Source: Amphiscolops sp. MND2022
Taxonomy: Eukaryota
NCBI GenBank assembly: GCA_964187785.1
Contig: OZ076409.1
Span: 62,374,001-62,438,000 of the forward strand
Reading direction: 5' to 3'
Length of the DNA stretch: 64,000 nt
The translations under genes were made by a program, and so were the position numbers. Each line of letters starts with the position of its first letter. The stretch's first letter is position 1. Positions 10,838-63,200 of this stretch are shown one piece after another. The notes beneath the pieces are model-generated. The model had not been told where the DNA came from, did no database searches, and saw nothing but the letters and a program-made list of their open reading frames with translations.

Positions 10838-10913
10838 GTAAGTCATTTGGTTTTCTTTTTCAAATGATTTTGAAAACGAGCTTAAACCGGTGGTTTTTTT
10901 TACAATGTTACAG

Positions 10914-26626: not shown

Positions 26627-26904
26627 GTTATCAAAGATATGGTCTCTTTGGGAGAAAAAACCAGCTGGAGTCCTAAGCCTGCCGTGAGATCAATGTACGA
26701 GGCTCTAAATTCTCTAATAGTGCCAGTGGATGTCGGAAGCGTTGATCTAGGGGTTCTGGACGCGAAAGGACTAGACGGTGAAATAACTGGCGTGTTTCAA
26801 GTTGCTAGACCCAGTGAATTGTCGGAGTTCAGAGCACACATCGGACATGTTGAAAGGCTACTGCATGGAACTAATACTTCTAGTGTCATTGGAATTTTGT
26901 CAAG
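26627..26904 (+). CDS. PARP4: PARP4 exon 8, ART domain N-part with catalytic His (LLHGT..GILSR)
   Basis: ctgtag acceptor, VIKDMV start, HG motif, donor gtgaga phase 2. Confidence 0.93.
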
Positions 26905-27039
26905 GTGAGACTTTGTATAATGTTATTCTAAATTCAATTGAGAAAACAAAATGCCTTAACCTTCGACTTTTCGATGATACTCACATAAAATGATCATTCA
27001 TATAATTTCATTAGCAATTGCTACTTTGTTGTGTTTCAG

Positions 27040-27491
27040 GGGTCTACTGTTACCGGACGTTGTGACCAATGAGTTCGGAATAAAGCTCACTGACTATGGC
27101 AAGTTAGGCGCTGGTATTTATTTCGGCACCAAAACCCAAACTAGCTTGAAGTACACCTCCAGCTCAAACTGCGGTTTTCGATACCTGCTCGTCTGTGACG
27201 TAGCGTGTGGACGAAAGTTGACTGTCACTGAAGAAAAACCGGACTTGATTAAAGCTCCCGATGGTTATGATAGTGTTCTGTTTACTGGAGGGAACAAAGA
27301 TGGTTCTAACACTCATGACGAGGAAATGGTTGTCTATGACCCGAGTCAAGTCAGCATCAAGTATCTAGTCGAATTGAAACTTAAAGCTGATTCTGTTAAA
27401 CCTTCAACTACGAAAATGCAAAACTTTCTGACTGAGGATAACGATGGAACAGAAAATGAAGACAAATGCGAATCTCAAGCCGAGGATTTAA
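27040..27491 (+). CDS. PARP4: PARP4 exon 9, ART catalytic core (GLLLP..GAGIYF..SLKY..CDVACG..GYDSV..DEEMVVY)
   Basis: PARP catalytic motifs with Tyr and Glu of the H-Y-E triad; donor gtaagt. Confidence 0.96.
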
Positions 27492-27743: not shown

Positions 27744-27917
27744 AATTGGACCAGCTGTCGTCTCTGACGCCGCCCGTAAGCGAAGCAGGTCTTGTGCCTC
27801 AGAGCGGATCCCGGGACTCTATCCCACTACAGGCAGTTCATGTCCGCGCAAAGATGGTTGACCTGGCAGCAAATGTGGTAGTGATGCAGATATACAAGAA
27901 TAACAATTCATCAACAG
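27744..27917 (+). CDS. PARP4: PARP4 exon 10, VIT N-part (IPLQAVHVRAKMVDLAANVVVMQIYKN)
   Basis: VIT domain start; phases 1/1 fit both neighbours. Confidence 0.92.
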
Positions 27918-28203
27918 GTTGCTGATAAAATGGAAACTTTATCTCTGGAAATTTGGCCTGAAAAAACGTAGCTCGTTCCACGTGATACATTTCTGATAAG
28001 AACAGTAGCTTCCCACTAGTGAAAACTTCATTTGTGCTCTGAAATAACTTTTCAACTTGAGTTGTCATTATTCAATTATCAAAGCTCCTAATCGGTTTGA
28101 TTATTATTTGCAGGAAATCTCATCAGTGAACTGTATTGGTCAGAAATAAAAAGTTATGTATAAAATGCTTGCTCATTCGAAATCTATCTTACTTTTTGAA
28201 CAG

Positions 28204-28499
28204 GACGTCAAGGCGGAAACATCGAGGCGAAATACGTTTTCCCATTGGACGAGTTTTGCACAGTTGTCGGATTCGAAGCCTACATAAACGGCAAGCACAT
28301 TGTTGGAACAGTAAAGGAAAAAATGGCTGCTCGAAAGGAGTACAAGAAGGCAATCGAAGAAGGGCACGGTGCCTATCTGATGGAAGAGGAAAAGGAAACA
28401 CCCAATGTGTTCTCAGTAGCGGTTGGCAATCTACCTCCTCAAGCGATTGTGTTGGTGAAAATAACCTACGTAACCGAACTTCAGGTACAGGGTTCGAAG
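28204..28499 (+). CDS. PARP4: PARP4 exon 11, VIT (IEAKYVFPLD..GFEAYINGKHIVG..VGNLPP)
   Basis: Strong VIT signature; donor gtcagt chosen by alignment to PARP4. Confidence 0.95.
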
Positions 28500-28920: not shown

Positions 28921-29133
28921 GTCAAGTTTTCGTTACCTTCTGCTGTTGCACCTTGGAATGCGAAGTCTTTTGAAGACACGAAGTTGCAAACAGAGTTGGA
29001 AACCATTCTTGTGAACCCTGGGGGAACAGATGGTGAATTGGGGAAAGAAAAGTTCACGTTCGAGCTTACAGCAGACATGGGATCAGCTATTAAGCAACTC
29101 AGCTCACGAACTCATCCTCAACTAAAAATTAAG
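28921..29133 (+). CDS. PARP4: PARP4 exon 12 (VKFSLPSAVAPW..SSRTHPQLKIK)
   Basis: cttag acceptor, VAPW motif, donor gtttgt. Confidence 0.9.
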
Positions 29134-29357
29134 GTTTGTCATTGTTTCATTTTATTTTTACTGGGAGTTATTTCGGAACATGTTATGGTGTTTTTTGTTG
29201 GGTATAGTAGCTTGAATTAGAAATCAAACCAAAGAGCTAGTTCAAGATTTTAAAAGGAAAATAGAAATTTTTTTGCGCTTCTCGTCTAATGCAAAATTTT
29301 GTTTTTTCTATTTCTGCGTGGCGATTAGAGCTTTTAGTCATATTTTTTTTTCTTCAG

Positions 29358-30269
29358 CGCACAGAAACGCAAGCAGTATGTGCGCTCCCTAATGGAGCCT
29401 CAGAAAACGATCAAGGTCTTGGGAATGACGGCTTCGAACTGCTCATTGAGTTAGAAGAAGCGAACAAGCCTAGAATGTGGGTTGAACGCTTGCCTGATAA
29501 CCCGGACGACGAAGCTGTTATGCTCTCTTTCTATCCTCAATTTGAAATGAGCCAATCAGAATCCTCTGTTCACGTAACCAGTCAGATCATACTTCTCATC
29601 GACCTCTCAAACTCTATGAAACACGACAAAGGCTTTTTTACAGCAATTCAATTAGCATGTCTTACAATTATGAATTTGGAGGAACACCAACTTTTCAATG
29701 TGATACTCTTTGGCACTAATTATCGCGAAATTTTTGATGCTTCTATCAAAGCCAACGAAAATTCGAGGAAAAAAGCGATCGATTTAATGACTAAAGTTGC
29801 CACACACTTTGAAGCTCTAGGTGGAACCGAATTGGGAAAGCCCATTGCAATGTTAGCAACATTGTTTCAAACAAAAGACGATCTGAACCCGATGTTGCGA
29901 TCGAAAAGCGGAAGTAGCATGAAAACTACTTTGATGTTGTTCAGTGACGGACATTTACCACAAAGCGTTCAAAGCTCCATACTGAAAGTTCTCAGCAAAT
30001 CAGAAGACAATAATCAGTTCCGACTGTTCACAAACGGAGTTTCAAGCTCCTGTGACAAGCACACTATGAGGCTAATTGCTAACAGAGGTTGTGGTTTCTT
30101 TGAGTTTTTCGACCCATCCCACAAATCTTCGTGGGCGGAAAAAGTCAAGCGCCAGCTCAAAAAGTGCTTCCAACTTGCGTTGAGCAAAGTTGCAGTTCAG
30201 TGGGTGCGGCATGATGAAGATGATGACCGCCCAACTTTCGATGTCCTTGATGGATCTGGAATGATTCAG
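29358..30269 (+). CDS. PARP4: PARP4 exon 13, vWA domain
   Basis: PRMWVE, MIDAS DLSNS, FNVILFG, GGTEL, FSDG, RLFT motifs. Confidence 0.95.
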
Positions 30270-30547
30270 GTCTGTAATTGGGAATTGAGTTTTATGGAAA
30301 CTCCCAAATTTGGTCTCACGAAATTTTAATAGCATTCACACTCAACGTTTTGTTAGGCATTACAGTTACAAAGTACGACAAATTTTGTAGATGAACGGCG
30401 TTGTTTCGGGTGCATTGGAAAAATAGGCACTAAACTTGATACTGTAGTCTACAGTCTGTAGATATTTGTGTACGATCATTCAGCTAGCGAATATTATGCA
30501 TGCGAAATTATGAACTTTTGTTGGATGAATTTGTCTGTTCATTTTAG

Positions 30548-30698
30548 GCACCTGCAAACTTGTCAGTGTTGTTTGATGGCGAACGAGTTGTTGTGTACGG
30601 GCTGGTGAGACATTGCAGACAAGCCATTCTCAAGGCACAGTTGAATGGCCAAGAAGTTTCAACTGTAGTCTCCTGTCCCGATCTTCAAGTGACTGATG
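30548..30698 (+). CDS. PARP4: PARP4 exon 14 (APANLSVLFDGERVVVYG..)
   Basis: Q|AP junction typical of VIT-vWA proteins; donor gtaaga phase 1. Confidence 0.92.
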
Positions 30699-30884
30699 GT
30701 AAGATTTATGATTTTGTTTGGGAAGCACTAAGTTTCATCAGTTTTTAGTGGGCCAAGTGTTACCCCGCTCAAACCACTTGTGAAATGTTCAACGTAGCTG
30801 TCTTTAATTTGTAAGGCAAGAGATTTCTCGCTGTTATTCAAGTTTCGGCCCTCACGATGCTAAGGTGTAAACCATTTCCAGATC

Positions 30885-32660
30885 AATTTCATTATTATGA
30901 AAAAAACATTTTCATATAAATGCAAATCGAAACATTTTCATATGAGTGCATTCCAATTTCATTGTTGCGCGAAACATTTTCATTTGGACGAAATTCATTT
31001 TCAGTGTTCTGAATTCGTTTTCATTTGCTAAGTAGTATAAAACATTCAGCGCAGATAATTTGTATTATATCATGGAAAGAAAAGAATGAACATGTATACA
31101 TTAAAAGTTACAATTATAACTTCAAACCATTAATCTATTCTGTGCGGTTTTCTCACAAGATTCCAGGATAATATCGTTCAACATGCGCAGCATATGATGC
31201 AAAATGAAACGGCAGACTTTGTTGAATAGATTCTTTCGCAACTGTTTCTATTTTTGCATACGATATTCACCGATTGTCATTATGGCGTTGGTAAGATTGA
31301 ATTGAAATATGCTGGACATCTGATCACGTAATATCATTTCCACTGAAGCCTTGAATCTACTCCAAAAGAGCTCGATGAGAGTAATGAGATACAAGTAAGG
31401 TGCGAGGCGTGTGGTTTAGACCAAGAATGGTTTCTACATTCGAGTGAGCTGGGGCATTATCATTGATGATTGTTGGCTCCTCGATTCCCTCGTCTGTGCA
31501 TGTTTATCAACTCCCTTATCCATGCTCCCTCATTCATGCAACTTTCAGAATCGAACGAACCTTTTTAGCAATGCAAATTGTGTCCTTTCGAAGCAGTTTG
31601 TATCACGGTCGCTCTACATCCGATCTTCGATCTGCCTTCCTTTCGACAGTATAAGTTGAAGTTTGTTTCATTTACCGACACCAGTTTCCTTTCAATTGCC
31701 CGATCTCTCAGTATTTTCTTGTATCGCACTGCTTATTGTTGTTTCCATTCATTGTTCCTGGATGGGGTCGCACATTCTAGACAGAAATAAGTTTTCTCGC
31801 CAATTTCTGACATTATTTACATAGATATTCAGGAAATATACTTGCATGATTCTCTCGCAATTGCTTTAGTGTCAGTTGTTGGTCGTTTTTGAGCCATTCA
31901 ACCAAATCCAGAACAATTCGTTCTTTTTTTGACAACAATTGCACCACAATCAAGTGGTTCCCCCATTTCTTATCCAAGTGATAGCATTGCCTCTTTAATT
32001 CTTCTACGCTTTTGCAGTCATTTTTGTCGTTAAAAGCCTTGATGGTGGCGTCTTTATTGGCCTGAGATTACTGGGGATATTTGTCTCGTTTAATTGATGC
32101 CCTCTCGTAAATTCCTCTTAGCATTTTAAAAGATAGAAAATACTAGACACAATGAAATTGAACGAATAATGGTAGCAATTGTTCCGATTTTGCCAGAACT
32201 GCTATTTTCTAATTTCAAAATTGCAATTGTTGACAGTTTTTTAAAGTTTCATAATTGAACATTTTGGTAATTTTAATCAATTTCATTTTTTGTAAGCTTC
32301 AGTGAGATTATTTGGAATTTTGAATGTTCAAGTTTGCAATTTGAAGTAATTTTACAATTTTATTTTTGTGTCAATTTATCGACAATTTCTGATTCACTGG
32401 GTGAGAATTGTATGCTGAATGTGTAATTTGAAACTGTAGTTGAAAATGTAATTCGGTTGAACAAAAACGTTTTGCATGGAAATGAAATTGTTCATTCAGA
32501 TGAAACGGATGTTCATCGATATGAATATCTTTTTCATGAGTTCGATAAAAATTCTTACATGAATGATATTGGATTTCAACCATATGAAATTATTTTCAAA
32601 TAAAATGAAAATGATTGCTCGATTTAATGAAATAGAATTAGGAATTGAATAGAAAGATGT
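30885..32660 (-). mobile_element. Decayed Tc1/IS630-like DNA transposon with long imperfect TIRs
   Basis: Minus-strand fragments NETNFNLYCRKEGRSKIG, SKGHNLHC, DNAPAHS, LAPY at ~31150-32130; inverted catttt/aaaatg-rich ends. Bounds approximate. Confidence 0.75.
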
Positions 32661-33043
32661 TTATAGACACAAAAAACTTAGATATTCTGAACGTCTCAGT
32701 CAATATGGACTGTCTCTTAGCCTTTTTTCCTATATGGTTACAAAAAGTAGCCCTCATTGAATTAAAAAGACTCGCTAATCGGTATTTTTAAGGTGGAGGG
32801 ACTGAAGAGCCGAGTAGGCTCATCCCCTGTCAAAATTAAAGTTTATATTGAAACAAATGCCATTTTCTTGTTTTTACAACATTCATTTAAATAAACGTTG
32901 CTTTCCTGGTCAATGAATAGCCAGGGTTTTCTCAGTGGATCAACAAGGCTGTTTTTCTGAAGTAAACGTTGAAACCGCCGTTGTATGATTTGGTTATAAT
33001 TAATGCCTGATCGAAAAGTCTTGATGAATGCTTGTTTTGTTAG

Positions 33044-33234
33044 GCAAAATGGTGCACCAACTAGCTGCGAGGGCTATCATCCGGGACTGGGAGACAAATG
33101 CAATCCTGCACACTGACAAGTCCACTAACGAAGTCGTCAAAAAGCAGCTCAAACATACCATCATCCAACTCAGCAAACGTCATCAAGTGATCACGCCTTT
33201 TACCAGTTTTTTGGCTGTTGAAAAGCGAGAAAAG
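33044..33234 (+). CDS. PARP4: PARP4 exon 15, ITIH-like (MVHQLAARAIIRDWE..VITPFTSFLAVEKREK)
   Basis: Conserved PARP4/VWA5 motif; phases 1/0. Confidence 0.94.
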
Positions 33235-33475
33235 GTTGGTAGAAAAAGTCTCCTAGGGCCATCATATAGGAAAATTAATTGTGTAATTGCAGGAACTGCC
33301 AATAGTATTAGGAAGTTACCGAAAGTAATGACATAATAGTTTCTCACGGTTACTTTAATTTCGGGATTTATCGGTAGATTGGCATCATCATTCAATTAGG
33401 TGTAAAATATGCTGTTATAGAACAACGCCGTTTTTATTCATTATATTTCCTCCTCTTTCACTGATGAACCTTTAG

Positions 33476-33580
33476 AATGAAAAAACCAGCATGGATATGA
33501 AGTTCATTCAAGAAGTGGTTGCTAAAGAGGGAGTGGATTCTTTGGAGTATATTGGCTGGGAGAATGAAGTGATAATCAAG
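33476..33580 (+). CDS. PARP4: PARP4 exon 16 (..EVVAKEGVDSLEYIGWE..)
   Basis: Resembles PARP4 ELIAKEDVDFLPYMSW; tttag acceptor, gttagc donor, phase 0. Confidence 0.88.
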
Positions 33581-38412: not shown

Positions 38413-41100
38413 TCCGAAATTACATCTAATTATTTATACAATACTATACAATAGTAATATATGTGCATTCTTGAATGGAACTAGAGGCAAATGTCCGCTT
38501 AATTGGGACCTCAACAATACGAACAAGGGTGATAAAGGAGTGACAGTAACTTTTCTCTTGTGATTTAGGAGTTTACCTACTTGGGAGCTATTTGTTTAGA
38601 ATAAACATCTTGTGCAAAAACATTAACTTTTGTTTACCAGAGACAAGTCAAGGGTTTCCTGGTTGCCCAGAACATACTTTTGAAAAGAGTTCATGACAAA
38701 CATTTACCATTTTTCACATCGAAACTATGGAAAGATGCATTATCGTAAGACACCCATCGATAAAAGTTTTTATTCTCGAATACATGATGAATCACGTACC
38801 CTTGATTGCAATTACATGTAGTTCGAGTTTCTGTTTCAGACACCATACGAGCTCTTTATCGAGAAATACGAGTCATTCGAGAAAGAAAAGACTTATTCAT
38901 TGTTGACTGCAGCCGAATCAATAACCGAAGCGGCAAATATGTTGCAACAACATTCCAACAAACTCTTGCCTATCGAGAAATTGATCGAGGTTTGTCAACA
39001 TATTGTTCTCACCATTTCCAAATGAAGTTGTTTAACTTGATTGACAAATTCTACAGCAAACAATGATTTGAAAAGGATATCAAGTCAACAATGAAATACT
39101 CGACAACGGATAGATTTAGTGCTTTATGAAATTATGAAACGATGTAAGGAATGCGAAACATAGTGTTTAGAAAACCATGTCATAGCCAAACATGCTTTCT
39201 CATTATCACTCGTGTTATGCAATTTGTACGCTCTTTTTAGAATTCAAACTACGAACATACTCAAGTATTATATTAATTATTGTGCAAAATTTTTGTCGAA
39301 TTCCTCTTGTGTTCCAAAAAGTTCGCGACTTGAAATTTTTATGCTAATAGCTCAGGCAATTCAACGAATCGGGCAAACTGTGTTTAGTTGGTAATACAAC
39401 TGGTAATGTTCAATTCATTAGACAAGGTTACTAAAATCGTGTCATTTTTCTAATTCCAGTAAAAATAGGTTCGAGCAGAAATTCATCAGTAAATTCGAAA
39501 ATCGGTCATAAAACATGCAAAAAGATAACATCTTATTTTTCGCCGAGTTTACTTGCTAATAGATTGAGTTTGACATGCAATATTTTCTACTTTTAGTTTG
39601 GTGCAGATTCGATAGACGTACTTTCGTCTCTGGACAGAACAGATCAAGTTGAAATGATCGGAGACCAAGTTTTACAGGCGATGAATCAGCTCGAAGATTC
39701 CACCTTGAAAGGAATTTCTGAAGAGCATCTGAAACATGCTTCATTCATCTATAACACTGTGAAAACGTTAGTGCTCGCATATTTGGAGGTTTTAGCATCA
39801 ATTGGTAAAATTTTTAAATACAAGTAGCTATACATACTGATTATATAAACGTTTACAAGAATTCTTTCAAACGTCTCCTTCAAGGGTGCAGTTTGCCATA
39901 TACCTCTTGTGGAAGGATAATTAGTGGACGAATTAAATAGCGCTATTTCATCTTTTATAGTGGAATTAGTTTTAAACAAGATAAGGCTTGTAAAATTCAA
40001 TGACATCTACAGCAAATTTGCCTACATGGTGAATTAATGATTGCAAGTTCGATATCTAATGACTAAAATCATATAACCGGAAGTTGAAGATTTGCAAAAC
40101 GACAGTCCAAAGTCAGAACCAATCAGATTAAAAAAAAGAATTCTTTCAATACAAAAAAAAATAAACAAATCTGACATATCGGCTTGCGAGTTTACATATC
40201 AAATTCACGGATTGCTTTATAAAGAGATAAAATTGAGCGGTTGTTATCACAGCCAGAGCATACAGATCTTCTCTTTTCGAAATATTTTTTCCATTGTACC
40301 GTATTAACTCGACAGTTTTCCATCCAATTCATAAGCTCAGTCGTTACGTCAGCTTCTGCAAGAATTCGTTCAATTTCAGATTTCTAAATTGCAGAAACTC
40401 ATTGTTACGTTTTTTAAACGAATCGACTCACTTTCTGCCAATAACTAACAGATGCTGGTGGAAAGCTATCGCTAAAACTTGGTTGGAAAGTACTTATCAC
40501 TTGACCTAGAAGTTAACGCGGGTTTCTTTGCCTGGTCATGAAGTCTGGGGAGCAAAAGTACGTTGTTTCGAATTCCGCTCTCGACCCAAAAATGACAAAC
40601 ATACATATTATTTTCATTGGTATTAGCAGCACCCGCATTGCAGATAATACTGCATAAAACAGAAACGTTATTTAATTGGTCTTATGAAAAGGTTATTTAT
40701 TTATGCTTTCCAAGGTAGTTGGGAAACCAAAGTTTTTTTGCACTGCGAGACTTTTTGAACTTTGTATGTTTCACCAAAAAGTCACCTTTTAATTATTTTA
40801 TCTCTTCAGCAAGTAAAAAGCGTTTTGCGAGACAAGAGGGTCGCTTTTTTAGTTTTTCGGCAATGTGCGACTTTCCGATTTGAAAATTTGGCAAAATCCG
40901 GGTTTTTAAAAGATATATTTTCAGTCAAGGTCTTCCACCCATTAATTTTTTTCGGAATTGTTTATCACTGATTAGTTCCCCAGCGTGTGTGTTCAAAACA
41001 AACCAGTGTCGAGCTTCTGTATCTTCAGTTTGAACTCTTAATACTCATTCTGAACAAGACGGCCGCTAAGCACCAGGTAATTTTCCGCTAAAATGTAACG

Positions 41101-42128: not shown

Positions 42129-42344
42129 ATTCTACTTCAGTGTCTGTTTAGATTGAAGAATGCCAAATTGAGCGATGGTGAGAAGGCAGAAGATGCTTAT
42201 AAAGACAAATTGGATAAGTATTTAGTGCCAGAGATAGAACGGAATGTGGAGCTGAAAGTGATTCAACTGACTGGCAAACAGACTCACTTTGTGTTTAAAC
42301 GTTATCAAAGTGTGGCTGAAGTCAAGGACACCATCTACGAAGAA
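42129..42344 (+). CDS. Exon: linker plus ubiquitin-like domain N-half (VELKVIQLTGKQ..VAEVKDTIYEE)
   Basis: LTGK and VK motifs of the ubiquitin fold; phase-0 acceptor at 42129 (alternative 42141); donor gttagt. Confidence 0.82.
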
Positions 42345-43181
42345 GTTAGTTTGGCTCTTTTGTTACACCCCCCCCCCCCCCCTCCTCCACCATCAAAATT
42401 TTTTGGGAAAATTAGTGGAAATCTTATAACAAATAGACTTGAATACAAACAGAAAGCTTCAGTTTTAAATTTATTCTCAGGGTGATAGTTTAGGATTGAA
42501 AGTTTAGATACAAACTTTGTTCACACTTTTTCCCTATGTAGTTACGCATTTTTGGTGAAGAAATCAACAGCTTCCTGTTTTGAGTCATCAATAAACACAC
42601 TCAATACGAGAATAATTATAGTCAAAATGCGTGAACAATGTTTTGTTCGAGCGGAAAAACTACTCCAATACAAGTTAACTTCCTGTTATGAAAGAAGGTT
42701 TACTTTTAATTAGGCTAGTCTAAAGTTTTTAAGGAAAGTTTTTCAGAAAATCGTATGTGAGAAACTGTAAAATTAGAAAGTAGCAAGCAATGTGCTTTTA
42801 ATTTTGTTTAGCAAGGTAAAATAAGGAGCATTTTTATCCTTTTGTTGGACAGGGTGTAGATGCAGTTGCTGTAGAAGTTGGGCGCCATTATGAATTCGTA
42901 GGGGTACTTTTTAGCTTTCTTTCGGTAATAGGATTTGTCAAGAATGTAAGCTTATGAACTTTACTTTTGAGTCTTTGCTTGAGTCAACCTTAGGCGGTGA
43001 TTGTTGAAAAACCAATGATTGAGTCAGTCTTGTCAATGAAAAGTCGTAATGCGAAGTAGTAGTAGTAGTGAGCCATTGATTTCTCCATTACATGATTAGT
43101 TTTTTATAAAATTTTCATTATCTCTGCGATAGCAGGAATATTATTGAAACCTCAAGATGCCAACTTTTTTATAATAAATCT

Positions 43182-43592
43182 GAGGGCATAAGTCGGCGCC
43201 CGTCTTAAGGCTGAAAAAGCAAAAATACTTCGAAGCGTCAAGGATTCTCTTTTTATTATTTCTGCGATAGCAGGAATATTATTGAAATCTCAATTTGTCT
43301 ACTTTTTTTTCAGTGTAATTCTTCGCACGATATTGAAAATATCAGATATTTTGTTCGGCAGTGACTATAAGCGTGAGAATTAATTTTCTCAAGCTGCCGA
43401 CAACAATTCAATTCTTATGCGATGGAACGAGCGAGTGATAATTATGCATTCGTACGCTGACGTCATTGAGATGAAACGAGGGAATGTTCGTAATTATGCT
43501 TTCGTACGCCGAGTTATTGAGATGAAGCGAACGAGTGTTAATTATTCTTTCACAGAGAGCTTCGCCTGCATTCAAATGCGAATGCGAAACTT
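43182..43592. repeat. Dispersed repeat, highly similar to 63490-63897
   Basis: agggcataagtcggcgcccgtcttaagg ... gcttcgcctgcattcaaatgcgaatgcgaaact in both copies. Confidence 0.85.
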
Positions 43593-44429
43593 TAAAGCAG
43601 AAATAGCAAAAAGCAAAAACTTTGAAAGATTAAAGCAGAAATAATAGTGTGCCCCGGGCCTATTTGTTATTGTGGTACCCTATTTTAAAAAGGATGTTTT
43701 TCTATAGGATCTCATGTAGGGCTTTTTGCAAAATCCTACGTCCTTTCACCACTGCTTTTAAAAAGCCCTCATTCAAATAGATCTAGCATATCTGAGAAAG
43801 AATTATGCGTCGATCTTACATTGTTCTATCGCTAGAATTTGGAGCATGTGAATGTCGGATAAAACTTACGGACCATGTCATCTATTTCCCCCCAAAACTG
43901 CGGCGGGGGGTAATAAGACAGAAGGTTCAAATACCATTATGTCGACATCATTTGCGTTGAAATTTTGGTCCAATAAAATAATTGATGTTAACATAATCCT
44001 ATCCATTACATTAACTCAGTTACAAGCTTCTCATTAGATTTTATAGCGGTCAAAATTTGCGTTGAAATAGGGGGCTTTTTAAATACATTTTTAGCTTGTT
44101 TCAAACGTAACTTTCTGCTATTTTGGACAGTAATATCAAAAATTATTGTAATTTTTTTGCCTGAAGTGTTCAAACAGTTGTAGAAACAATCCTCTAAGTA
44201 TTTACATTCATATAATATTCTCTTATTAGTGAAATATTTTTATTCAAGAACAAAATGTGTTTTCGTGTTTGGGGGATATTCACAACAAGGTATACCTGGG
44301 GGGGGGGGTAGATGACATGGATCAAACTTACGCGACCTTGTTTAATAACGTTATGAAAATGTCATTGCATTTTTTGTTAATCGGTGGTTGCACATACGAA
44401 AAGCAAAAGCCAAAGTTTCGTTTTTGCAG

Positions 44430-44592
44430 GAAGGAATTCCGCCAAATCAACAGAGGATTGTTTTCAAAGGAAGACAACTACAAGATGAACAAATCCTGAA
44501 TGACCTGGACGTGCAGAATGGCGACACTTTTCACATGGTGATGAGACTCAGAGGTGGATATATTGACCCTACAGCTATTCCAGACAAAAGTG
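44430..44592 (+). CDS. Exon: ubiquitin-like domain C-half (EGIPPNQQRIVFKGRQLQD..HMVMRLRGG-YIDP..)
   Basis: Clear ubiquitin similarity; ttgcag acceptor phase 0; frame continues past GG to donor gtaaga phase 1. Confidence 0.92.
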
Positions 44593-45018: not shown

Positions 45019-45159
45019 AATTGGGCCGTACAGTAATGGTAGACGCTGGCTCGTACACTGTGAAAGCTGGACTTGTGTCTGAGGGTGGATCAACTGTGGA
45101 TGCCATGTGCAGTGATATAGTGGAAGTCAGAAATGTCGTTGGCCGGCCCAGACATCAAG
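45019..45159 (+). CDS. Exon: actin N-terminal-like segment ([22 protein letters not shown])
   Basis: Matches actin phosphate-1 loop DxGSxxxKAG and VGRPRHQ; attcag acceptor, gtaaga donor, phase 1/1. Absent from the ORF track. Confidence 0.9.
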
Positions 45160-46450
45160 GTAAGAAGAGCACTTGAGGATGGATAGTCGTCTTTCCCTTG
45201 AGGATAGTAGTGAAGAACTACTAGGGATCGCTTTGCTCGAAGGGCAGGTAGGAGAGGTGCTTACTTGCAATCAGAAAGTCGGACGTTTCGAAAAACTTAC
45301 AAATGCCATTTTTTTGCTCATTAAAAAGCTCTCAGTTGTTTCAAAGTGTCCTGCGATCCATCAAAAGTTTTGGCTGCTTGTTTTCAAATGTTACACATTT
45401 GAAGTCTGAAATTTCTATTTTTTTTGGTTTACTAGTATTAGCATATGACTGTTAGAGGACATATGACATCTCGATTCGACCCTTTTTTTACTATTGGAAA
45501 GTTCTAATTTTCCATTATATTATTTACTCCAACCCATTCACTTCATATGGGAGAAGAAAATTCACCTATCCGCTTGCTTTTTCCTAACAATTATTGCGAA
45601 GGTCCAATTTTATCTTCGTAAAGTAGTCAAAAGACAATGTTCGTAGCGGGCGTATTTTTGAAAATTCGCGTGTCTCGCTTTTCCTTCGAGTTTTTCACTT
45701 TCAAAAAATAGCCTACTAAAATTTGGCGCTATTTGAGAACGACAATGTTGGGGAAACTCAATGACTGAAGAATCGCCATTCGTATGGAAACTACATCAAG
45801 ACAAATTCGGTTGTCGTTTTCAGATTTCGCAAAGCTTTAATGTAACTCGTGGAATAACGTCAACCAATTACCATGACCCAGTTTCTTGTCCCTGCATCTG
45901 ACAAAAGTCCTCAGGGGATGAATTACTTTTACGTCTCGGAGTTTATCCCCGTGCTTGTTGATGGATTTCTTCGATTGAAGTGAAAAATCAGCTGTTTAAT
46001 TATAGAAACTTCGCTCTCATTTTCGCTCGGAATGAACGAGTCTGTTTGCAATAGCTCCAATCATTCGGGGGGGGGGGGGGGGCTTTTTCCGTTCGATACA
46101 TGAAAAGTCTATTCGTCTTGGAAGAGTTGCTTGTGCTAAAAGGTTTTATTCACCCTGAAGTTAGTTTACTCACGAAGAACATTTTCCCCGTCTACTATGC
46201 CAATTGTTACTTTTCTTCCAGTTCTTTATTGTTTTGACCCACTTGACTAAGTAAGTTTTCTGCCTAATCGCAAACTAAATTCCCTAGTTTATCGTTACAG
46301 TTCACCTTCGAGAGGGAATAGGCTTATACAAGGAAGCTGTTGGCCCAACGTTGTAAACCATGTCTAAATTGATAACAATTTAGATGTTCCGAGTCTCGTT
46401 CAAAACTATATCATCATTACTAAGCAACCATTTTTTGACGCTCTTTTCTG

Positions 46451-47010
46451 TCGTATCATCATCGTCGTATCCATCATCAATGTAGAGGTCCACATAGCAC
46501 TGTTTGCCACCTCTCCGCCAGTCTGACAGCTTCATCTGTTACTCTCATCAGATCTCCGGTATGCAATCCACTTGCTTTGACTATGTGTGACGTCGTCTGA
46601 ACTTGTCCGCATTGACATAACTCGTCTTCGCTTACACCCCATTTTTTGAGGTTGTATTTTGATCTTCCATTGAGCGCTCTCAATCTATTGAGGCATTTCC
46701 ACGTGCTCCACTTCAGGTTTCCACCAGGTGGCAGTTCCTCACGACGGCCAGTAGGTTGGTTCTTTGAACGCTCTCTCATTTTCCAGAAACGCTGCTTGTA
46801 CTGTTCTGCTGTCATATCGGGGACGCATGTTTTGTGTAGGAACCTGTACCTCGATTTCAGCCGCCTCTCTGCTGGTTCTCGTCCGTACAGCGGGTGTCTG
46901 GAGTCAGTCTCTTGTTACTTTTCTCCTGTACTAGACAGCTCTTCCGGCGAATCATTGGCGGGGCTATTCCTGCTAGATTGTACACTGTATCTATTGGGGT
47001 GTTTTCTGTG
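46451..47010 (-). mobile_element. 3' fragment of an Ingi/Vingi-like LINE
   Basis: WKCLNRLR..GR..LKKWG..CQCGQVQTTSHIV C-terminal zinc-finger motif; gatacga-repeat tail. Confidence 0.72.
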
Positions 47011-47074
47011 AGACGTGGCCGGTACACTCAGATATGATTTCCATAACAGATTTACTGAACTGATGATATGATTA

Positions 47075-47697
47075 CCAGAAATTTCGTCGTCAGAATATTC
47101 GTCGTCGATAATTAAGATCTATAATCCGTCGCATTTTCTCTAATCTAATAAGAATCATTTCATTAATGAGTCCTGATAATTATCGAGTCTTTGTAATTAT
47201 CTCAATAAGTATCGATAATTGTGCAATTATTGCTATCATTGACTACTTTTACTTGTGGTTTTGAAAGAAAAAGTTTCGGATCATGCTTAGCAACCACCAA
47301 AAAGATACATTTTGTTTCTTAGCCCCCCAACACAAAGTTGTTTCGACACTTAAAGCAAAAATTTCCAGGATTTTTTGATAATTATCTGACAAAAAAGCAA
47401 AAATTCACCCCTGGGACAAGTTTAAATTGTATCGTAAAGCCCTGGTAAGTAGTTGAAACACCGTTAAAATACTTCAGGACTGAAAATTTCTCGTTGCTCC
47501 TGATAAGTTGATTGAATGCAATTAACTTTTTGACTCAATTCCGGTGTCAAAATGAAACTTGTTCTTAAGATCTCATTCTATTAATTAAATAATAGAATAA
47601 TTATAATGGTATCTTTCCGTGAACGCTGTTGATTCTGGATTAGCTAATACGACGAAATTTCTTACGACGAAATTTCTGACGACGAAATTTCCGCCTT
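47075..47697. mobile_element. MITE-like element
   Basis: gaaatttcgtcgtcagaa ... ttctgacgacgaaatttc inverted ends. Confidence 0.6.
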
Positions 47698-47704
47698 CCG
47701 ATGT

Positions 47705-48125
47705 TTAAGAGTCTAAAAAAATTTCGACTACTTTATGCAATCCTTTTTTTCTCCCAACCTTTCAGTGAAAATTTCTTAAAAACTGTCCATACGATTTCCA
47801 TAAAATTTTGCTGTTATTCTACACCCAAAGGTGCCCCTGTGTGCACAATGTTATCAAAATGGTATGACTGGAATGTGAGAAACATAGCCAAATTTCACCC
47901 TAAAATGGCCAAAAAACAGCTGTTTTTGGACTTTTTTCGATTTTCTCAAAAACTGTCCGCACGATTCGAACGATATTTCTATTTCAGGGTCATTCTACAC
48001 TATATTCTACACGCTTCATTCTACACTATCTTAGGGTCATATAAGCGCAATTTCATCAAAATCGTATGACTGGGATTCGAGCGAGTCAGAAGAAGAAAGT
48101 CATTATCCGACACCGGCTCTGGTTT
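47705..48125 (+). mobile_element. HINE-like family B copy
   Basis: Shares aaaactgtccatacgatt / aaaatggccaaaaaacagc units with 20986-21512. Confidence 0.68.
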
Positions 48126-48890
48126 CTATACCTCGACGAAATCATTTATGGCGTGCCTTTTAAAAGTTTCAAAGATGACATTCTCTATTATGGGGTGACT
48201 TCTTACTATTATTCTTTCGTTTCATGGCATCAGAAAGTTTTCCATGTCAACTTAACGATTCCACAACGGAAGAATACACGCTCGATCACGTTTAGTGCAA
48301 TGAGTGCAATATCAAATACCGATACCCTGAGTTGTTTTGTGGCCTACACTTTTTTTAGTTTCCGTGAACCTTTTGTTTTAAAATTTTGATGTTTGATTTT
48401 CTTTTACTAGTTCTATTCCGTAGTTTGAGAATGACTTTTTTGCGTTCAATTGCCTCTTCGAGCTTTCTTCTTATTCTCTTAGGTATTTGAATTTCTCAGT
48501 CAAAAGGAACGAAACTCAAAGACGCAACTTCATGCAAAAAAAAATTGATGACTTCATATTTCATTCTTGAACTACTGAGAAGAACTAATGAAAAAGTAAA
48601 TCAAGTTTTTTCTGACTCGAACTTTTGTATCACTTCATTGTGAAAATGGTGGAACCGTTTTCTGATTATGTTGGATCTTGACGTTGGATGTTTAAGTTGG
48701 ATCTTCACTGCGCCTCTTGACATGCAATCACTTTTTTGACGATAATTTGTCGGTCGCAGATAGATTTTTTTGTTTCTAGTTTATGTGATCATTCATGTGA
48801 TTGGGAATCAGTTTTTTAAATTTCTACCTCTCTTCTTGCTATGGAATTTTTTGAACGCCACTTCTCGAAGTCACTTTTATTTTCTTGCAG

Positions 48891-49025
48891 GCGTGATGGT
48901 TGGCATGGGACAGAAAGATAGCTATGTTGGAGCGGAAATCGACCCTGCATTTCGTTTGACAAAGCTTGCAAAAGTTGAAACAAAACTCCGGAGCGAAGCA
49001 ACAGACTCAGCTGATTCAAACTCAA
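48891..49025 (+). CDS. Exon: actin D-loop ([14 protein letters not shown]) then non-actin sequence
   Basis: Exact actin D-loop sequence directly after a ttgcag acceptor; donor gttagt; phase 1/1. Confidence 0.9.
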
Positions 49026-53165: not shown

Positions 53166-53570
53166 AGCCCATGTCATCGCGTAGAGCTTTCTCGCCACCT
53201 CGTCTACGAGCTTCTTGCCACCCCGGAACTGGCATGGAACCTCCACCACCTGCACCGGTGATGGCACCTCCTCCCCCACCTGCACCTGTCATGGCCCCTC
53301 CTCCGCCACCTGCTGCTGGGAGGGTACCCCCTAGAACTGACATGGCACCCCCTCCACTGCTTGGAGCTTGTATGCCACCCCCTCCACCACCTGGAACTGG
53401 CATGGCGCCCCCTTCACCACCTGCAGCTAGCATGATGTATTCTAGTTTTTCTGTACACTCGAAGCAAGTTGAAGCAGCGTCGCAACCACCACGGCTATTG
53501 GCAAGCGCCGAAAGCTACGATGAAATTGCTTGTCTTGATTCACTCTTGCAGTCAGCCACAGTTGAAAACG
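53166..53570 (+). CDS. Polyproline exon, copy B (MAPPPPPAP repeats)
   Basis: ttttgaag acceptor, open frame, donor gttagc; phase 1/1. Confidence 0.8.
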
Positions 53571-56472: not shown

Positions 56473-58110
56473 GAGTCGAATTGAACAGTTTACCGGGCAA
56501 CCTCACAGAAAGTGAAGAGGATCTCCCAATAGTTTCTCCCAAAAAACTGCCCGTTTCAATTGCTTGTTCTGACGATGATATATTTAACGAACCTCTAACG
56601 AACCAAATTTTTGGTAAAAAACAACCACGTGGAACCGCCAGTGGCTCAGTTGATGGGCAACCGCTTAGCAACATTCAATTTGGATCGTCATCGGCTCAAC
56701 CAACCAGTGGGGGTTTGTTTGGATCAGCCTCCGCACAACCGGTTACTGCGCAACTGGCTAGAAGCAATCTTTTTGGGTCTTCATCGACCCAACCAGCCAT
56801 TGGGGGATTGTTTGGATCAGCTGCGCAACCGGCTAAAAGCAATCTTTTTGGGTCTTCATCGACCCAACCAGCCAGTGGGGGTTTGTTTGGATCAGCCTCC
56901 GCGCAACCGGTTACTGCGCAACTGGCTAGAAGCAATCTTTTTGGATCTTCATCGACCCAACCAGCCATTGGGGGATTGTTTGGATCAGCTGCGCAACCGG
57001 TTAGCAGTAGTCTCTTCGGATCGTCGTCAGGCCAACCGGCCAGTGGGGGTTTGTTTGAATCAGCCTCCGCGCAACCGGCTAGAAGCAATCTTTTTGGGTC
57101 TTCATCGACCCAACCAGCCAGTGGGGGTTTATTTGGATCAGCTGCCGCGTAACCGGCTAGCAAAAGTCTCTTTGGATCGCCATCGGCCCAACCGGCCAGT
57201 GGGGGTTTATTTGGATCAGCTGCTCCGCAGCCGGCTAGCAAAAGTCTCATCGGATCGTCATCGGCCCAACCGGCCAGTGGGGGTTTATTTGGATCAGCTG
57301 CTGCGCAGCCGGCTAGCAAAAGTCTCTTCGGATCGTCATCGGCTCAACCGGGCAGTGAGGGTTTATTTGGATCAGCTGCTGCGCAACCGGCCAGCAGTAG
57401 TCTCTTCGGATCGTCACCGGCTCAATCGGGCAGTGGGGGTTTATTTGGATCAGCTGCTGCGCAACCGGCTAGCAGTAGTCTTTTTGGATCTTCATTGGCT
57501 CAACCGGCCAGTCGAGGTATGTTTGGATCAGCTGCTGTGCAACCGGCTAGTAAAAGTATCTTCGAATCGTCATCGGCTCAACCGGCCAGTGGCGGTTTGT
57601 TTGGGTCAACTGTTGTGAAACTGGCTAGCGAAAGTCGCTTTGGAACATCAGCTATGCCGCCGGCCAGTAACAGTACATTTGCGGCCGAATCTCATGATAG
57701 TACTTTTGGATCATTTTCGGCTTCATCAACTGGTTCTGGTTTCGCATTTGGATTTGGTTCCTGTGGTGAAGAAAGATTAGCTTCGAATAAAATTTCCAAA
57801 TCTGGTCGAATGAGAAAATCTAAAATGAGTTCTTCGGAATGTTTTCGTGAGCTTGCGATTGGCTCAACTGACGACGTCAATCCCTGGTCAGGATCAACTT
57901 TATTTGGTGGCCCTTTGCGGAGTGGCTCTGTTTTACATAAAATGTCTTTGGAAAGTGCAGAACGTTCACGTGTAAAAAGTATGATGTCTCCTGATTCGTG
58001 TGAACTTGGACAAAAAAAGCCGGAAATGAAAATAGTTTCTGCAGAAAACTGGACTGCCGTATCTGACAATGCTGCTACGCTGAACCGTGAAATGGTTGAC
58101 GAAACCGAAC
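56473..58110 (+). CDS. FG-repeat exon (GGLFGS/SLFGS, nucleoporin-like) with in-frame TAA at 57150-57152
   Basis: ORFs 56445-57152 and 57495-58115 share one frame; 1638 nt, phase 1/1; ttttgaag acceptor, gttagt donor. Confidence 0.78.
56680..57610 (+). repeat. Coding minisatellite, alternating ~36-nt units (QPASGGLFGSAAA / QPASKSLFGSSS)
   Basis: Tandem caaccggc..gggggtttatttggatcagc units directly visible. Confidence 0.95.
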
Positions 58111-59243: not shown

Positions 59244-59515
59244 AAGCTGTCTCAGAACAATTGGATGCCGAATTGACTTCATTAACTCCAACAGAAGCTT
59301 ATGGGGGATTTCATCTTGTCGAGGGAGACTTTTCCAAGCATTTGGAAGCAATGTCTTCAGAACTGGATAGACAATCAAAGCAGCTATCGAGCATTTCGAG
59401 GCACACTTCAAGTATTGGAGGAGGCATTGAGGAGAGTCTGAACAATATTTATGACCCGTCAATAGAAGATACTGTTGATGAAGCAATGGACGAGAGCGAT
59501 AGTGAATGCGAAGAG
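59244..59515 (+). CDS. Acidic exon (..DPSIEDTVDEAMDESDSECEE)
   Basis: ttacag acceptor phase 1 fits the preceding exon; donor gttggt. Confidence 0.72.
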
Positions 59516-59849
59516 GTTGGTTGCTTTTTGTTATTTCTATTTTACATGGAATGCTCTTTTGATTGCTGAGTTCAAAAGTTGCCGAAACGTTGACGCTCTG
59601 TTCAAAATATTCAAATTAAATCTAAGTTGTTGATAAATAACTACAGTAGCATCGATGCTACCAATCAGCTCTTGAGAGAGCATTTTACTGTTATTAGTTC
59701 TGCGTTGGCTGGAGTATTATAATATAAAAAGGAACATTTTATCAGACAAGATCGTCTGTAAAATTGTTCAGTTATTCACGATCTAGCTAATCTAGGGCAG
59801 CAAAATCTGTTGACATAAAACGAACAAGTGTTTACCATATAGTCGTCGT

Positions 59850-60260
59850 TCGCTGAAAGCATAATATCTGCCCCGTTGTCCCAGTCGATTGGGGCTGGCG
59901 GGCGCCCTAAATTAACAAGCGCCAATTGTCTGTCGCAGTCCTGAGCAACTCGTCACTTTGCCCCAGGTCTTTCGTAGTCATCATCCTCCCACTGACAGAT
60001 TGTATTCAATTGAAGTTTGCGTCTCGCTGGAGTATAGTAGTACAGGTCGGATGCACAGTGTAGATAATTCCTCTCTGCCTCAACGAGAAACCTCGCTTAT
60101 CTCGGAATGCTAAATAAGACTTCCTTCTTTATGCAGTCTGCGATGGCTATTTTCATACCATCCTCCGCGCTCAGTCAGTCCCCAAGGTAGTTGAACTTCC
60201 AAATCCCCAAAACGATTAGTGTCAACTTCTGATAGAGGAGATGCTGATCTAGAAAATCGA
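59850..60260 (-). mobile_element. RTE-like LINE RT C-terminal fragment
   Basis: KFNYLG and IRPVLLYSSET on the minus strand. Confidence 0.62.
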
Positions 60261-63200
60261 CTTTCGTTCAACTTACGTTAACTAGACATTTTAATTTGAA
60301 TCTTCCACCGTTTTTGTCTCGGCGAAACCTAATCGAAAAAAGATCCGAAATTCGTTGTTACAGTGGGTCTGAGTGAAACAGGTCAAGAAGGGCCCAAGTC
60401 GGTGTCCTGATAAAGGCTAAAGGCCAACGTTTAACACCAATGACGGAAGATGGCACACTTGAGTCTCGGGAAACGCTTTTTCTCAAGTGAAAACAAACTC
60501 AATTTGTGGTAAAAATTCGGAAAAGTTGCACAAAAAACTTACGTACTCCTGCTTCCAGGCCCATTTAGTCAGACACCGGCAGTAATCACTAGACCAAATG
60601 GCGAGTACTTTTCAATCAATCTAGTAGTTTCAACCAAAATCTGAAAGGAAAAACGAAGTTTTTTTTCTTTTCAAAGTTTAATGCGTCGCTTCTTCCTACA
60701 ATATGGGACAAGTTATACTAATTTTTGTGAGGAAACGAACGTATGGCAGTTCAGTAACTCCTACAACATCGAACGCTGGAATTTCGGATCTTAATCTTAA
60801 TTTCAGGATTATGCTGATTTGTTTGCACCAATAACTGAAGCATCCTATAGACGGTCTGCAAAACCATCAATGTCCTCGGAAACGACACGTTAGTGGCATG
60901 CATTTATATACTGTTACCGAAAAATTATAGTCAACTAATAACTGAAGCGAAAAGTTCGAAATTCATTGATTTTCTGGATGTTTTAGTTAAAATTTTCAGG
61001 AGCAAGTCTCGCTGAATTCGATCTTCATCACAATGATATTTTGTTTAGCTTTTAAACCTAATAATTTAAAATTATTATTCACAAAAAAATTTAATGAAAA
61101 ATAATTCAAAATTAAAATAAGTAAATCACAGCCTACACGAGCTGATGAGATTATTATTTTACTGAATATTCCACAAATATTTTAGTTTAGGTTTTCCAAC
61201 GATGTAAATTGGGTCAACTATTTTCATTGCAGAATTGATTCAATCTGTTTTTTTTTCATTTCTGAAGTCAACTAAGCATTCACGCTGAGCTTCGATTTTT
61301 GATATGGCTAGATTTAGATTTTCAGATTCTAATTGTTCACTGTTTCTCCTAAAGTGAGTAAATCTCAAAGAATGTTTCGACAAGGTGTTCGCTTCAGGTC
61401 CGAAACTGAGATCGCCTGTGCTGAAAGCAGACATATCAGATGCCAGTATGTTATGTAATGTAAAAGTACGTAAGCATTTATTTTCATCGCAATAAGTTGA
61501 GTTTTTGTGTGTTCTCAAGAGGTTGGGTTATCTTTGTGTAATGGATGAAGCATTCGGTCTGTATCGAGGCGGGTGGTATCAGGGTGGAATCTGTCTAATC
61601 ACCGTTGTTGAATCTTGAGCAGGTCCTTCATTCTTAGCTTAGTGGTGTTGCCGTGACGCATTTGGTGAAGGAAAAGCAATTTTTAAACAAGATGGGGGAA
61701 CATCTCAAGTCGGCCCCCACTTAAGGCTCAAAAAGTGCAAAGTTTTTAAAAATGCTCAGGAAATGTTTTACGAAAACTCACATAAAAGCATCGAATCCCC
61801 CGAAGATTTCATGCTGGGACGAATGGGTTCGCTTGTTTTCGAACCTCCGCCTCGATTTCTCCCCTTCAAGAAAACGCAATATAGTTCGGATATAACGTCA
61901 AAAATTCGAATAGTGTTGAAAAAAATTATTGGTCGATATTTATTGAGAATTTCACAAGAAAAATGAGAATTTTGAAACTGTCCCATAAGGCCGAAAATGT
62001 GAAAGGCGGGACCCTTTGGGTTTTTTACTATCCATTTTGTTGCAAAACATCAGAAAGATTAAAGGGTGCAATCCAAAAATTTTCAAAAAGTCTCAGTGTC
62101 GGAAAACTAAGTGGAAAACGCCAAGATAGCAAGTCACGCTGAACTTTTAGCTTTGAGCTGATCTCTGATAAACCACTTGGCTCAATACTCTCGAGTTACT
62201 TTTTCTAATATGAACTCCGTGGCTGAATTGGTTGTGGAAATTTTCTCGAAAAAATGTTTCCCGTAATTCGCATAGTGCCGAAAACCCTAATGGGTCCTCT
62301 ATGCTCGCAAGACGTTTGGTTCCTAGTGAAAATCGAGGGGACGCTTCGACAAAAACAAATTTTGAAAAAGTCGCATAGTACCAAAAACGCCGGTTTTTTT
62401 ATATAGCGCAACCTCCGCCTCCTTCTTAGTAGAACGCAATTTATTTCGTATATAACGTCAAAAGTTCAGATATAGCGTGCTGAGACAAATGTGACCTTTT
62501 TTGGAACTCCCATCTCCTCCTTAGTAAAACGCAATATAGTTCGGTCATAACGTCAACAATTCGAATATAGCGTGCTGGCTAGCCAAATGGTCTTTACCGT
62601 ATAAATAATATTTGCTCCATCTGTTCTCCGTAAACGTGGACGGATCAGAGCTACTGGAGAAAATTACAATCTAGAAGGAGCGAATCGTGGTTATTGAAGA
62701 ACATCTAAAGCACCAAATGATTGGTATCGTGATAAAGGTTATCTCATTTGCGAATATTGAATTTCGCGTTGGAACTTCATATCTTACATTATAGTTTGCA
62801 CCAGAAGCTTACATCTGTTGAAACTGAACAGATACAATTGAGTCTGAACCTCCGTGAGTTTTTGAACAAATATCTCATTCATATTGAAGGGGGAAAGAGG
62901 TCGGGGAAAGAAAAAAGATCCCGAACATGCATTTGATTTCATTGTAGGCATCGTACTATGTTTGTTATTCCTCTTTGATTGCCATCTATGTTGGAAAGCG
63001 AAACAAGGTGTAAATACCGTTATGTCGAGATCATTGTGCAAAATTTTTGACCGATAAATTGATTGATGTCGACTTAATCCAATCTTACATGTTGTTCATT
63101 TTATGGCGGAGAAACTATGTTGAACGTTTTTGAAAGTATAGTCCTTTGATAAAAGCATGTTTCCTCTATTTGAAGAACGCTCCATTTTTTGCTGATATCG

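Follow-up and report, generated by a model that had tools for sequence, protein, structure and literature searches.

A truncated actin fragment with a conserved D-loop in the linker of vault PARP4, a candidate bait module

The PARP4 gene and its actin exons

The window analyzed here is a stretch of 64,000 nucleotides from Amphiscolops sp. MND2022 (assembly GCA_964187785.1, contig OZ076409.1, positions 62,374,001 to 62,438,000, forward strand). It holds most of a gene for PARP4, the vault ADP-ribosyltransferase, and within this gene two exons encode a truncated piece of actin. A 19-exon model, with GT-AG introns throughout, runs from 26627 to 60888 and comprises 2040 codons, with one stop located downstream of the actin fragment. 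The flanking frames match the PARP, VIT, vWA, ubiquitin and FG-repeat families of Pfam, the Pfam matches and the exon model give the order PARP, VIT, vWA, and both an N-terminal BRCT region and a C-terminal MVP-interacting domain are matched, as in PARP4. Judged by sequence, the window protein is a member of PARP4 and stands outside the actin family. The actin-fragment exons are predicted to belong to the single PARP4 gene of the host genome; the VIT profile was matched only once among three genome-wide candidates, that match being the window gene.

The actin fragment is split over 45019-45159 and 48891-49025 and reads in frame across the split, with acceptors CAG and TTGCAG and donors GTAAGA and GTTAGT, which agrees with the original prediction for this locus. 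Their outer junctions also keep the frame, on one side with the ubiquitin-like exon, whose last base is 44592, and on the other with the proline-rich exon that starts at 53166. At these predicted junctions actin residues of about 7 to 57 would be spliced in frame into PARP4, after the ubiquitin-like domain. The 21 residues of the loop that binds DNase I (D-loop, actin residues 35-55) are exactly those of actin and match four host actins. The phosphate-1 loop is diverged and bears an insertion, identity being 0.40 over residues 7-21 and 0.15 over residues 22-34, where about eight residues are inserted. Actin likeness ends after YVG-x-E, with identity of 0.13 over residues 56-70 and the match stopping near residue 57; the complete four-subdomain fold of about 375 residues is absent, and no actin fold is possible. 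In all of this the features first described from the sequence were borne out.

Remaining actin exons were looked for from 10 kb upstream of the window to 40 kb downstream by tblastn with a host actin; these two exons alone were returned (E 0.003 and 5.2), with no further plus-strand match better than E 3.8. Exon 1 of the fragment by itself had no match in Pfam or among PDB sequences, and when a paralogue of it was sought in the host genome only exon 1 itself was found. The closest named orthologue is a RefSeq model from the acoel Convolutriloba macropyga (P0244), with 47% identity across the vWA exon; it carries the fragment contiguously, with 20 of the 21 D-loop residues identical.

Age of the fragment and selection on the D-loop

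Within the host genome 54 actin-family matches were found, 30 of which were extracted. Four host actins have an identical 21-residue loop. Against them the D-loop coding sequence shows differences at 15-17 of 63 bases and at 13-15 of 19 degenerate codons; the host actins among themselves differ at 0-8 of the 19. Saturation under equal codon use would be expected to give 13.0 of 19. An identical peptide at saturated synonymous sites points to selection rather than recent capture, and by this measure the actin D-loop in the window PARP4 is under purifying selection. Near-identical host actin DNA was looked for and none was found, so recent capture is not supported. A DNA search across the genome with the second actin exon found only the exon itself. 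With a degenerate pattern for the second half of the peptide, eight sites were obtained: seven actin genes, all of them already in the comparison, and the PARP4 exon (control, 0). The phase 1 intron within Gly42 is offset by a single base from the phase-0 intron that one host actin (L018) has at 41/42, and most of the other host actins compared lack an intron at this place; a possible origin is that genomic DNA was captured and the intron slid afterwards.

Position 41 is, after Ser52, the most changeable site of the D-loop. Three host actins (L001, L006 and L013) have Val or His there; Met and Lys occur at this site among PARP4 fragments, and Lys, Thr, Ser and Cys among fused protist actins.

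Conservation pattern and predicted shape

For comparison across species, 27 fragments were used: 26 chosen at about one per species, and that of the window. Mean identity to conventional actin is 0.97 over residues 35-55, as against 0.52 over 7-21, 0.55 over 22-34 and 0.44 over 56-70. The D-loop is identical at 21 of 21 residues in 11 of the 27, residues 42-50 are changed in just one, and M44, M47, K50 and Y53 are kept in every fragment. Conversely, the phosphate-1 loop (D-N-G-S-G) is broken, G15 being kept in none of the 27 and N12 in one; with these two residues gone, nucleotide binding is taken to be lost. D11, G13, K18, A19 and G20 are retained in 24-27 of the 27. As a control, all six divergent host actin-related proteins reverse the pattern, their D-loop being less conserved than their phosphate loop.

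The Macrostomum orthologue (P0069) was modelled with AlphaFold2 from a 30-row alignment, with a mean predicted local distance difference test score (pLDDT) of 58. Strands were placed at 951-955, 959-964 and 971-976 (pLDDT 55-65), and the D-loop was left unstructured (about 33). With modest confidence, the model suggests a small three-stranded scaffold with an exposed flexible loop. A fold search with the whole model was uninformative on the fragment, the matches listed being only PARP, ITIH1 and one trypanosome chain. It had been proposed at the outset that the D-loop was selectively retained as a linear mimic; purifying selection upholds the retention, while the conserved flanking residues and the modelled meander make a purely linear mimic improbable.

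Spread of the fragment among PARP4 proteins

Sequence comparison shows that the fragment is not peculiar to the window gene: it is a module of old standing in PARP4, with carriers that range from sponges to tunicates. Two kinds of search bear on its distribution. In an unbiased search, queried with the vWA exon and therefore blind to actin, 150 representatives yielded 75 PARP4s whose linker has 100 or more residues, most of them unidentified. The actin fragment is present in five (Mytilus, Magallana, Hydra, Nematostella and Macrostomum) and its loop is intact in all five. A phosphate-loop remnant without a D-loop was found in none of the 75, a small set. The second search was run with the Nematostella fragment against proteins of 1004-3198 residues; it needs exact 5-residue words and thus favours intact loops. 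It gave 89 proteins. Of these, 38 are PARP4-type, and in all 38 the actin ends at residue 56-85; the remaining 51 all carry long actin. The 38 carriers are spread over 27 named species from 8 phyla, with one further contig, and include sponges, cnidarians, an acoel, a flatworm, molluscs, hemichordates, a crinoid and a tunicate; no vertebrate was found among them by this exact-word search. Actin similarity reaches about residue 70 in sponges and most cnidarians, and is lost near 57-66 in bilaterians.

Fragment distances outside the D-loop track those of the PARP4 core (Mantel 0.44, p 0.0008, n=26; 0.39, p 0.017 in 21), a correlation to which shared rate differences could contribute. In a tree of 63 columns the fragments fall on one side and 11 actins on the other (support 91/90), and a single origin is neither shown nor rejected. 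Every listed isoform of the seven carrier species compared contains the fragment, and no alternative splicing of the actin exons was seen among them. Other searches added little: the first homologue search gave one match only, the third gave mostly mis-fused actin models and one useful addition (P0295), and a metagenome scan with P0184 found nothing.

Other modules in the same linker

Pieces of several housekeeping proteins lie in the linker that connects the ITIH-like core to the MVP-interacting domain. Where they co-occur, in 33 proteins mapped (the map was applied to named proteins only), their order is constant: core, 14-3-3 (C-terminal half), ubiquitin, actin, P-stalk, MVP-interacting domain. 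Among the 75 unbiased PARP4s, 17 have a 14-3-3-like module, 7 ubiquitin, 5 actin and 4 a P-stalk motif by a strict pattern. Residues of about 380-530 of Hsp70 were identified by Pfam in the linkers of Dreissena, Macrostomum, oysters and P0295, and other Pfam modules include synaptobrevin (Dysidea), WH2 (two sponges), 60S acidic protein (Ephydatia) and Rpb1 repeats (Antedon). Dictyostelium has 14-3-3 and P-stalk, and diplonemids have ubiquitin. P0295, a compact C-terminal half of PARP4, contains in sequence a ubiquitin-like unit lacking Gly-Gly, actin 6-67, a P-stalk-like motif and Hsp70 379-544, the last beginning at the interdomain linker as it does in Dreissena and Macrostomum. The Gly-Gly end of 17 ubiquitin-like modules is followed by Pro in 9 of 17, and in 2 there is Gly-Ser instead. 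Both of these endings should resist host deubiquitinases.

In the window gene the clear modules are ubiquitin, actin, polyproline and FG repeats, and its linker has a run of four exons that are all phase 1-1 cassettes. A 14-3-3 remnant was considered and rejected (BLASTP E 5.4; profile score below many of 500 shuffles), and a P-stalk remnant was not significant. The coiled stretch of exon 59244-59515 weakly resembles a Qc-SNARE motif (syntaxin-6, E 1.1); the exon had no Pfam match and no significant host match. The linker coil of Convolutriloba looks synaptobrevin-like by eye. A calmodulin that follows the actin fragment in Pinctada may come from a fused gene model and was not used.

Remaining features of the gene and the window

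The features of the window gene are collected in Table 1. The catalytic domain has motifs which we take, from the general PARP signature, to bear the H-Y-E triad. The MVP-interacting domain is encoded past the window end (about 4.8-15.9 kb beyond); its profile match has E 0.01, the three-exon tail is open, and two short joining exons are unfixed. An MVP gene is present in the same genome (contig C11). From these motifs and the presence of MVP, vault association and ADP-ribosyltransferase activity are predicted for the window PARP4.

Table 1. Features of the PARP4 gene in the window
Feature	Position	Strand	Evidence or remark
BRCT-region exons, PARP4 N-terminus, approximate borders	10718..11141	+	tblastn, P0244 residues 3-107, E 2e-6 and 4e-5
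PARP4 helical (regulatory) domain exon, approximate borders	24074..24457	+	tblastn, P0244 267-378, E 1e-15
PARP catalytic domain, two exons	26627..27491	+	PF00644 E 2e-11
VIT domain, two exons	27744..28499	+	PF08487 E 3e-27
vWA and remainder of ITIH-like core, five exons	28921..33580	+	PF13768 E 2e-9
Two linker exons (38840-38989, 39597-39766), where other PARP4s have the 14-3-3 half	38840..39766	+	first aligns to P0244
Ubiquitin-like domain, exons 42152-42344 and 44430-44592, ends RLRGG then Tyr	42152..44592	+	PF00240 E 6e-15
First exon of the actin fragment: strands 1-3, diverged (residues ~7-34), and the beginning of the D-loop hairpin (35-41), phase 1-1	45019..45159	+	
GT-AG intron of 3.7 kb, phase 1, within the Gly42 codon	45160..48890	+	
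Second exon of the actin fragment: residues 42-57 followed by unrelated linker, phase 1-1	48891..49025	+	
Proline-rich exon, phase 1-1	53166..53570	+	
FG-repeat exon, phase 1-1	56473..58110	+	PF13634 E 2e-22 and 2e-24
Two linker exons, 59244-59515 (weakly SNARE-like coil) and 60807-60888	59244..60888	+	acidic stretch at the place of a P-stalk-like motif in the orthologue

The one stop of the gene model is an in-frame TAA at 57150-57152 in the FG exon, at a place where sister repeats read CAA. Skipping this phase 1-1 exon leaves the PARP4 frame open in the model, and the TAA may represent an allele, an assembly error or a regulated exon. Just upstream of the proline-rich exon, a diverged duplicate of it occupies 52703-53071 and has no good donor before a stop in the needed phase; it is possibly a dead or an alternative cassette. 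Elsewhere in the window, at 2555-10094 and 12778-18000, are decayed frames that by eye we take to be transposons, namely pieces resembling non-long-terminal-repeat (non-LTR) reverse transcriptases and a Bel/Pao-like LTR element. A short frame inside the actin intron (46477-46914) is presumably the tail of a reverse transcriptase, and the last PARP4 intron appears, likewise by eye, to contain an LTR retrotransposon (L034; about 74.5-78.3 kb in window coordinates).

The actin fragment as a possible bait for effectors

The explanation that we favour, to which we assign a probability of about 0.5, is that the actin fragment is an ancient bait module for pathogen effectors. PARP4 would have acquired the 5' end of an actin gene in its flexible linker, early in or before animal evolution. 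Nucleotide binding would then have been lost and a small beta-meander retained, displaying the unchanged and exposed D-loop. Strung together in the same linker are fragments of other essential host proteins (the C-terminal half of 14-3-3, ubiquitin, the P-stalk tail, the substrate-binding part of Hsp70, the synaptobrevin coil, FG and polyproline), and microbial enzymes that read, cut or need those proteins could engage the mimics. An effector that binds would be held near the ADP-ribosyltransferase and the vault, and thereby be trapped or ADP-ribosylated, while one that cuts the linker would free the catalytic half from its vault anchor. Both of these outputs, trapping with ADP-ribosylation and release by cleavage, and a foreign reader of the loop, we infer. 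The bait reading is supported by 21 of 21 identity at saturated synonymous sites, by the uniform truncation and by the fixed module order.

Published work describes agents that act on the proteins in question. Certain bacterial effectors are activated by ubiquitin, 14-3-3 or actin (PMC4512716, Table 1), and ribosome-inactivating proteins dock on the P-stalk tail (PMC5122897). The Serratia proteases grimelysin and protealysin cleave actin only at Gly42-Val43 (PMC7311988), and the toxin ACD (actin cross-linking domain) joins K50 of actin to E270 (PMC3448709), the second of which is absent from the fragment. The substrate of MICAL is filamentous actin (PMC10705957). As for PARP4, the equivalent linker region is exon 30 of the mammalian gene, on which positive selection has acted repeatedly in both primates and bats; the authors of that study infer recognition of a pathogen factor (PMC4038475). 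The PARP4 linker has been proposed as a viral cleavage site that alters vault association (PMC10450202). A reconstituted vault is lined by about 20 PARP4, and vaults have been linked to innate immunity (bioRxiv 10.64898/2026.05.01.722283).

Several points weigh against a bait. The specificity of grimelysin is set by conformation more than by sequence (PMC7311988). The captured proteins are those with the most abundant mRNAs and the most used hubs of the host, so the modules could have host functions. The D-loop is frozen where an arms-race bait would be expected to vary, which might fit only if the target is itself invariant. The module is often absent, with 5 of the 75 unbiased PARP4s and no vertebrate among the 38 carriers, and the exact-word search would miss fragments with a decayed D-loop. 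The window gene has a stop in its FG exon. Its ubiquitin-like unit (44430-44592) ends in Gly-Gly-Tyr and is perhaps cleavable by host enzymes; host deubiquitinases might then split the window PARP4 in two, and its catalytic half would be left with an exposed Gly-Gly terminus. Finally, 24 of 26 fused full-length divergent actins, collected by a biased search, keep at least 90% of the D-loop. D-loop retention alone is thus not special, and the peculiarity of PARP4, as far as sequence can tell, is a D-loop kept without the actin fold.

Competing explanations can be set against the same data. One is that abundant mRNAs were captured, neutrally or repeatedly, by a linker that tolerates them, that actin genes converted the sequence, or that the gene model is an artefact. 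This would agree with the high expression of the captured proteins, with how common mis-fused actin models are in the database, and with a window junction that is predicted only, in a gene with a premature stop in one exon. However, the peptide is unchanged in spite of synonymous saturation against all host actins, position and truncation are shared by 38 proteins from 8 phyla, fragment distances follow the PARP4 core in the Mantel test, the fragments group apart from the 11 actins in the tree (91/90, with the reservation as to single origin given above), and mis-fusions carry long actin and not a short piece. For the PARP4 family this explanation is largely refuted, and we consider it very improbable.

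A role for the fragment within the host is harder to set aside. Were the D-loop to bind a host protein (the hydrophobic cleft of actin, a pointed-end or subdomain-2 binder, or a chaperone), it could place PARP4 and vaults on the cytoskeleton or load cargo, with the other fragments as further host docking sites. Strict conservation of the loop suits an invariant partner, WH2 and polyproline share the linker in sponges, the fragment occurs in all listed isoforms of the seven carrier species, and Perina et al. read a cytoskeletal link from actin and actin-binding domains on PARP4-like proteins (PMC4245714). Such a tether or adaptor nonetheless leaves unexplained why the modules are pieces of targets (actin, ubiquitin, 14-3-3, P-stalk) and not ordinary binding domains, why they are lost patchily, and why the linker region is under positive selection in mammals (PMC4038475); we regard it as rather unlikely. 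Still less probable, and by a clear step, is a sensor of stress or modification, or an element acting in cis, in which the loop would be modified as in actin (oxidation of Met44 and Met47, Lys50, Tyr53) or would dock on PARP4 or the vault wall and so tune PARP4. The invariance of M44, M47, K50 and Y53 in 27 of 27 fragments is in keeping with this, as is the report that vault RNA does not stimulate PARP4, whose activator is unknown (PMC10711553). Yet the neighbouring residues are equally frozen, beyond the needs of one modification site, MICAL acts on filamentous actin (PMC10705957), and the AlphaFold2 model, a weak one, leaves the loop unplaced (pLDDT about 33) with no sign of a contact in cis.

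If the bait reading is extended to the whole particle, the vault could be an ancient effector trap. The PARP4 library of mimics, copying those host proteins that are most frequently cut or required by toxins (actin D-loop, ubiquitin, 14-3-3, P-stalk, Hsp70, SNAREs and FG nucleoporins), would catch and ADP-ribosylate effectors or be released when cut, and the fast-evolving vertebrate linker would be its worn-down descendant. We offer this as a tentative idea that may well be wrong. If true, it would mean an animal-wide integrated-decoy system outside the nucleotide-binding leucine-rich repeat receptors (NLRs) and a concrete function for the vault, which has had no agreed function since 1986 (PMC10711553; bioRxiv 10.64898/2026.05.01.722283). 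A 21-residue actin surface frozen in a vault enzyme since before the sponge/tunicate split, beside fragments of other effector targets, is directly testable, as the baits are small and defined, the carriers include tractable animals (Nematostella, Hydra, Hydractinia, Macrostomum) and enzymes of the D-loop are known. Should the partner prove to be a host protein, a conserved D-loop reader and the first regulatory handle on PARP4 would be gained.

Related actin fusions

Actin fusions of other kinds were encountered during the searches. Seven proteins, one from Balamuthia and others from protist transcriptomes among them (P0181, P0182, P0194, P0195, P0200, P0206 and P0207), combine NACHT and TPR repeats with a full-length actin fused to them. 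DUF4062 is present as well in six, and the D-loop of the seven is 95-100% kept. DUF4062 is a TIR-like NADase domain that is also found in the vault protein TEP1. By their domain content these NACHT-TPR-actin proteins look like receptors of the STAND class (signal transduction ATPases with numerous domains) with integrated actin, a parallel to the PARP4 fragment. In P0241, from the foraminiferan Nonionella stella, actin is broken at residue 55 by about 620 residues with a vWA domain, the break being the point where bilaterian PARP4 fragments end. Protist proteins such as P0193, P0208, P0213 and P0226 join a divergent full-length actin (53-79% identity) to a vWA-type domain, with the D-loop 90-95% kept.

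Comparison with known systems

Actin on PARP4-like proteins is already in print as a bare annotation, and Pfam also marks an actin match there. Perina et al. 2014 (PMC4245714) listed 14-3-3, actin and ubiquitin-related domains on such proteins: the cases with 14-3-3 come from amoebae, Capsaspora, lancelet and sea urchin, and those with actin or actin-binding domains from Salpingoeca, Capsaspora and Acanthamoeba. In section 3.1.2 of that paper actin figures merely as an appended domain, with protists named, and not as a piece of about 55-70 residues with an invariant D-loop and a spread through invertebrates. The accessible portions of Citarelli et al. 2010 (PMC2964712), PMC10711553 and PMC10539598 make no mention of an actin module. 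Our literature search, in which subscription journals were mostly uncovered and supplements were outside the scope, found no paper on the truncation, the invariant D-loop, the invertebrate spread or a bait reading, and none pairing PARP4 with 'actin fragment'. The window gene itself shares the order BRCT, PARP, VIT, vWA and MVP-interacting domain with PARP4 (vault PARP, clade 5).

Integrated decoys of plant NLRs, for example RRS1-WRKY and Pik-HMA, are copies of effector targets built into a larger protein. The PARP4 fragment is likewise a copy of a host target within another protein, selected after losing its own function; its carrier is PARP4 and not an NLR or an inflammasome sensor. As in the plant decoys, the copy sits at a variable site and the sets differ by species. 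Unlike them, the carrier is a vault-anchored ADP-ribosyltransferase with several truncated fragments in one linker, known here from sequence. The bait region of alpha-2-macroglobulin is a comparable exposed and cleavable linker. In chlorarachniophytes, ubiquitin-actin fusions release full-length actin from true ubiquitin. The arrangement in PARP4 is similar in having a ubiquitin-like unit directly before actin, but here the ubiquitin-like domain is diverged, often ends in Gly-Gly-Pro, and lies with the fragment inside a PARP4 of more than 2000 residues. The protease tripwires NLRP1 and CARD8 (PMC7857732, PMC10249858) also present an exposed linker whose cleavage could alter the state of the protein, and the mammalian PARP4 linker is fast-evolving (PMC4038475); those tripwires and the alpha-2-macroglobulin bait, however, mimic cleavage sites and change quickly, whereas the PARP4 piece copies a frozen surface on a small folded scaffold, with no known cleavage-dependent output. 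By analogy with these systems, the actin fragment of PARP4 most plausibly works like an integrated decoy, without its carrier being an NLR.

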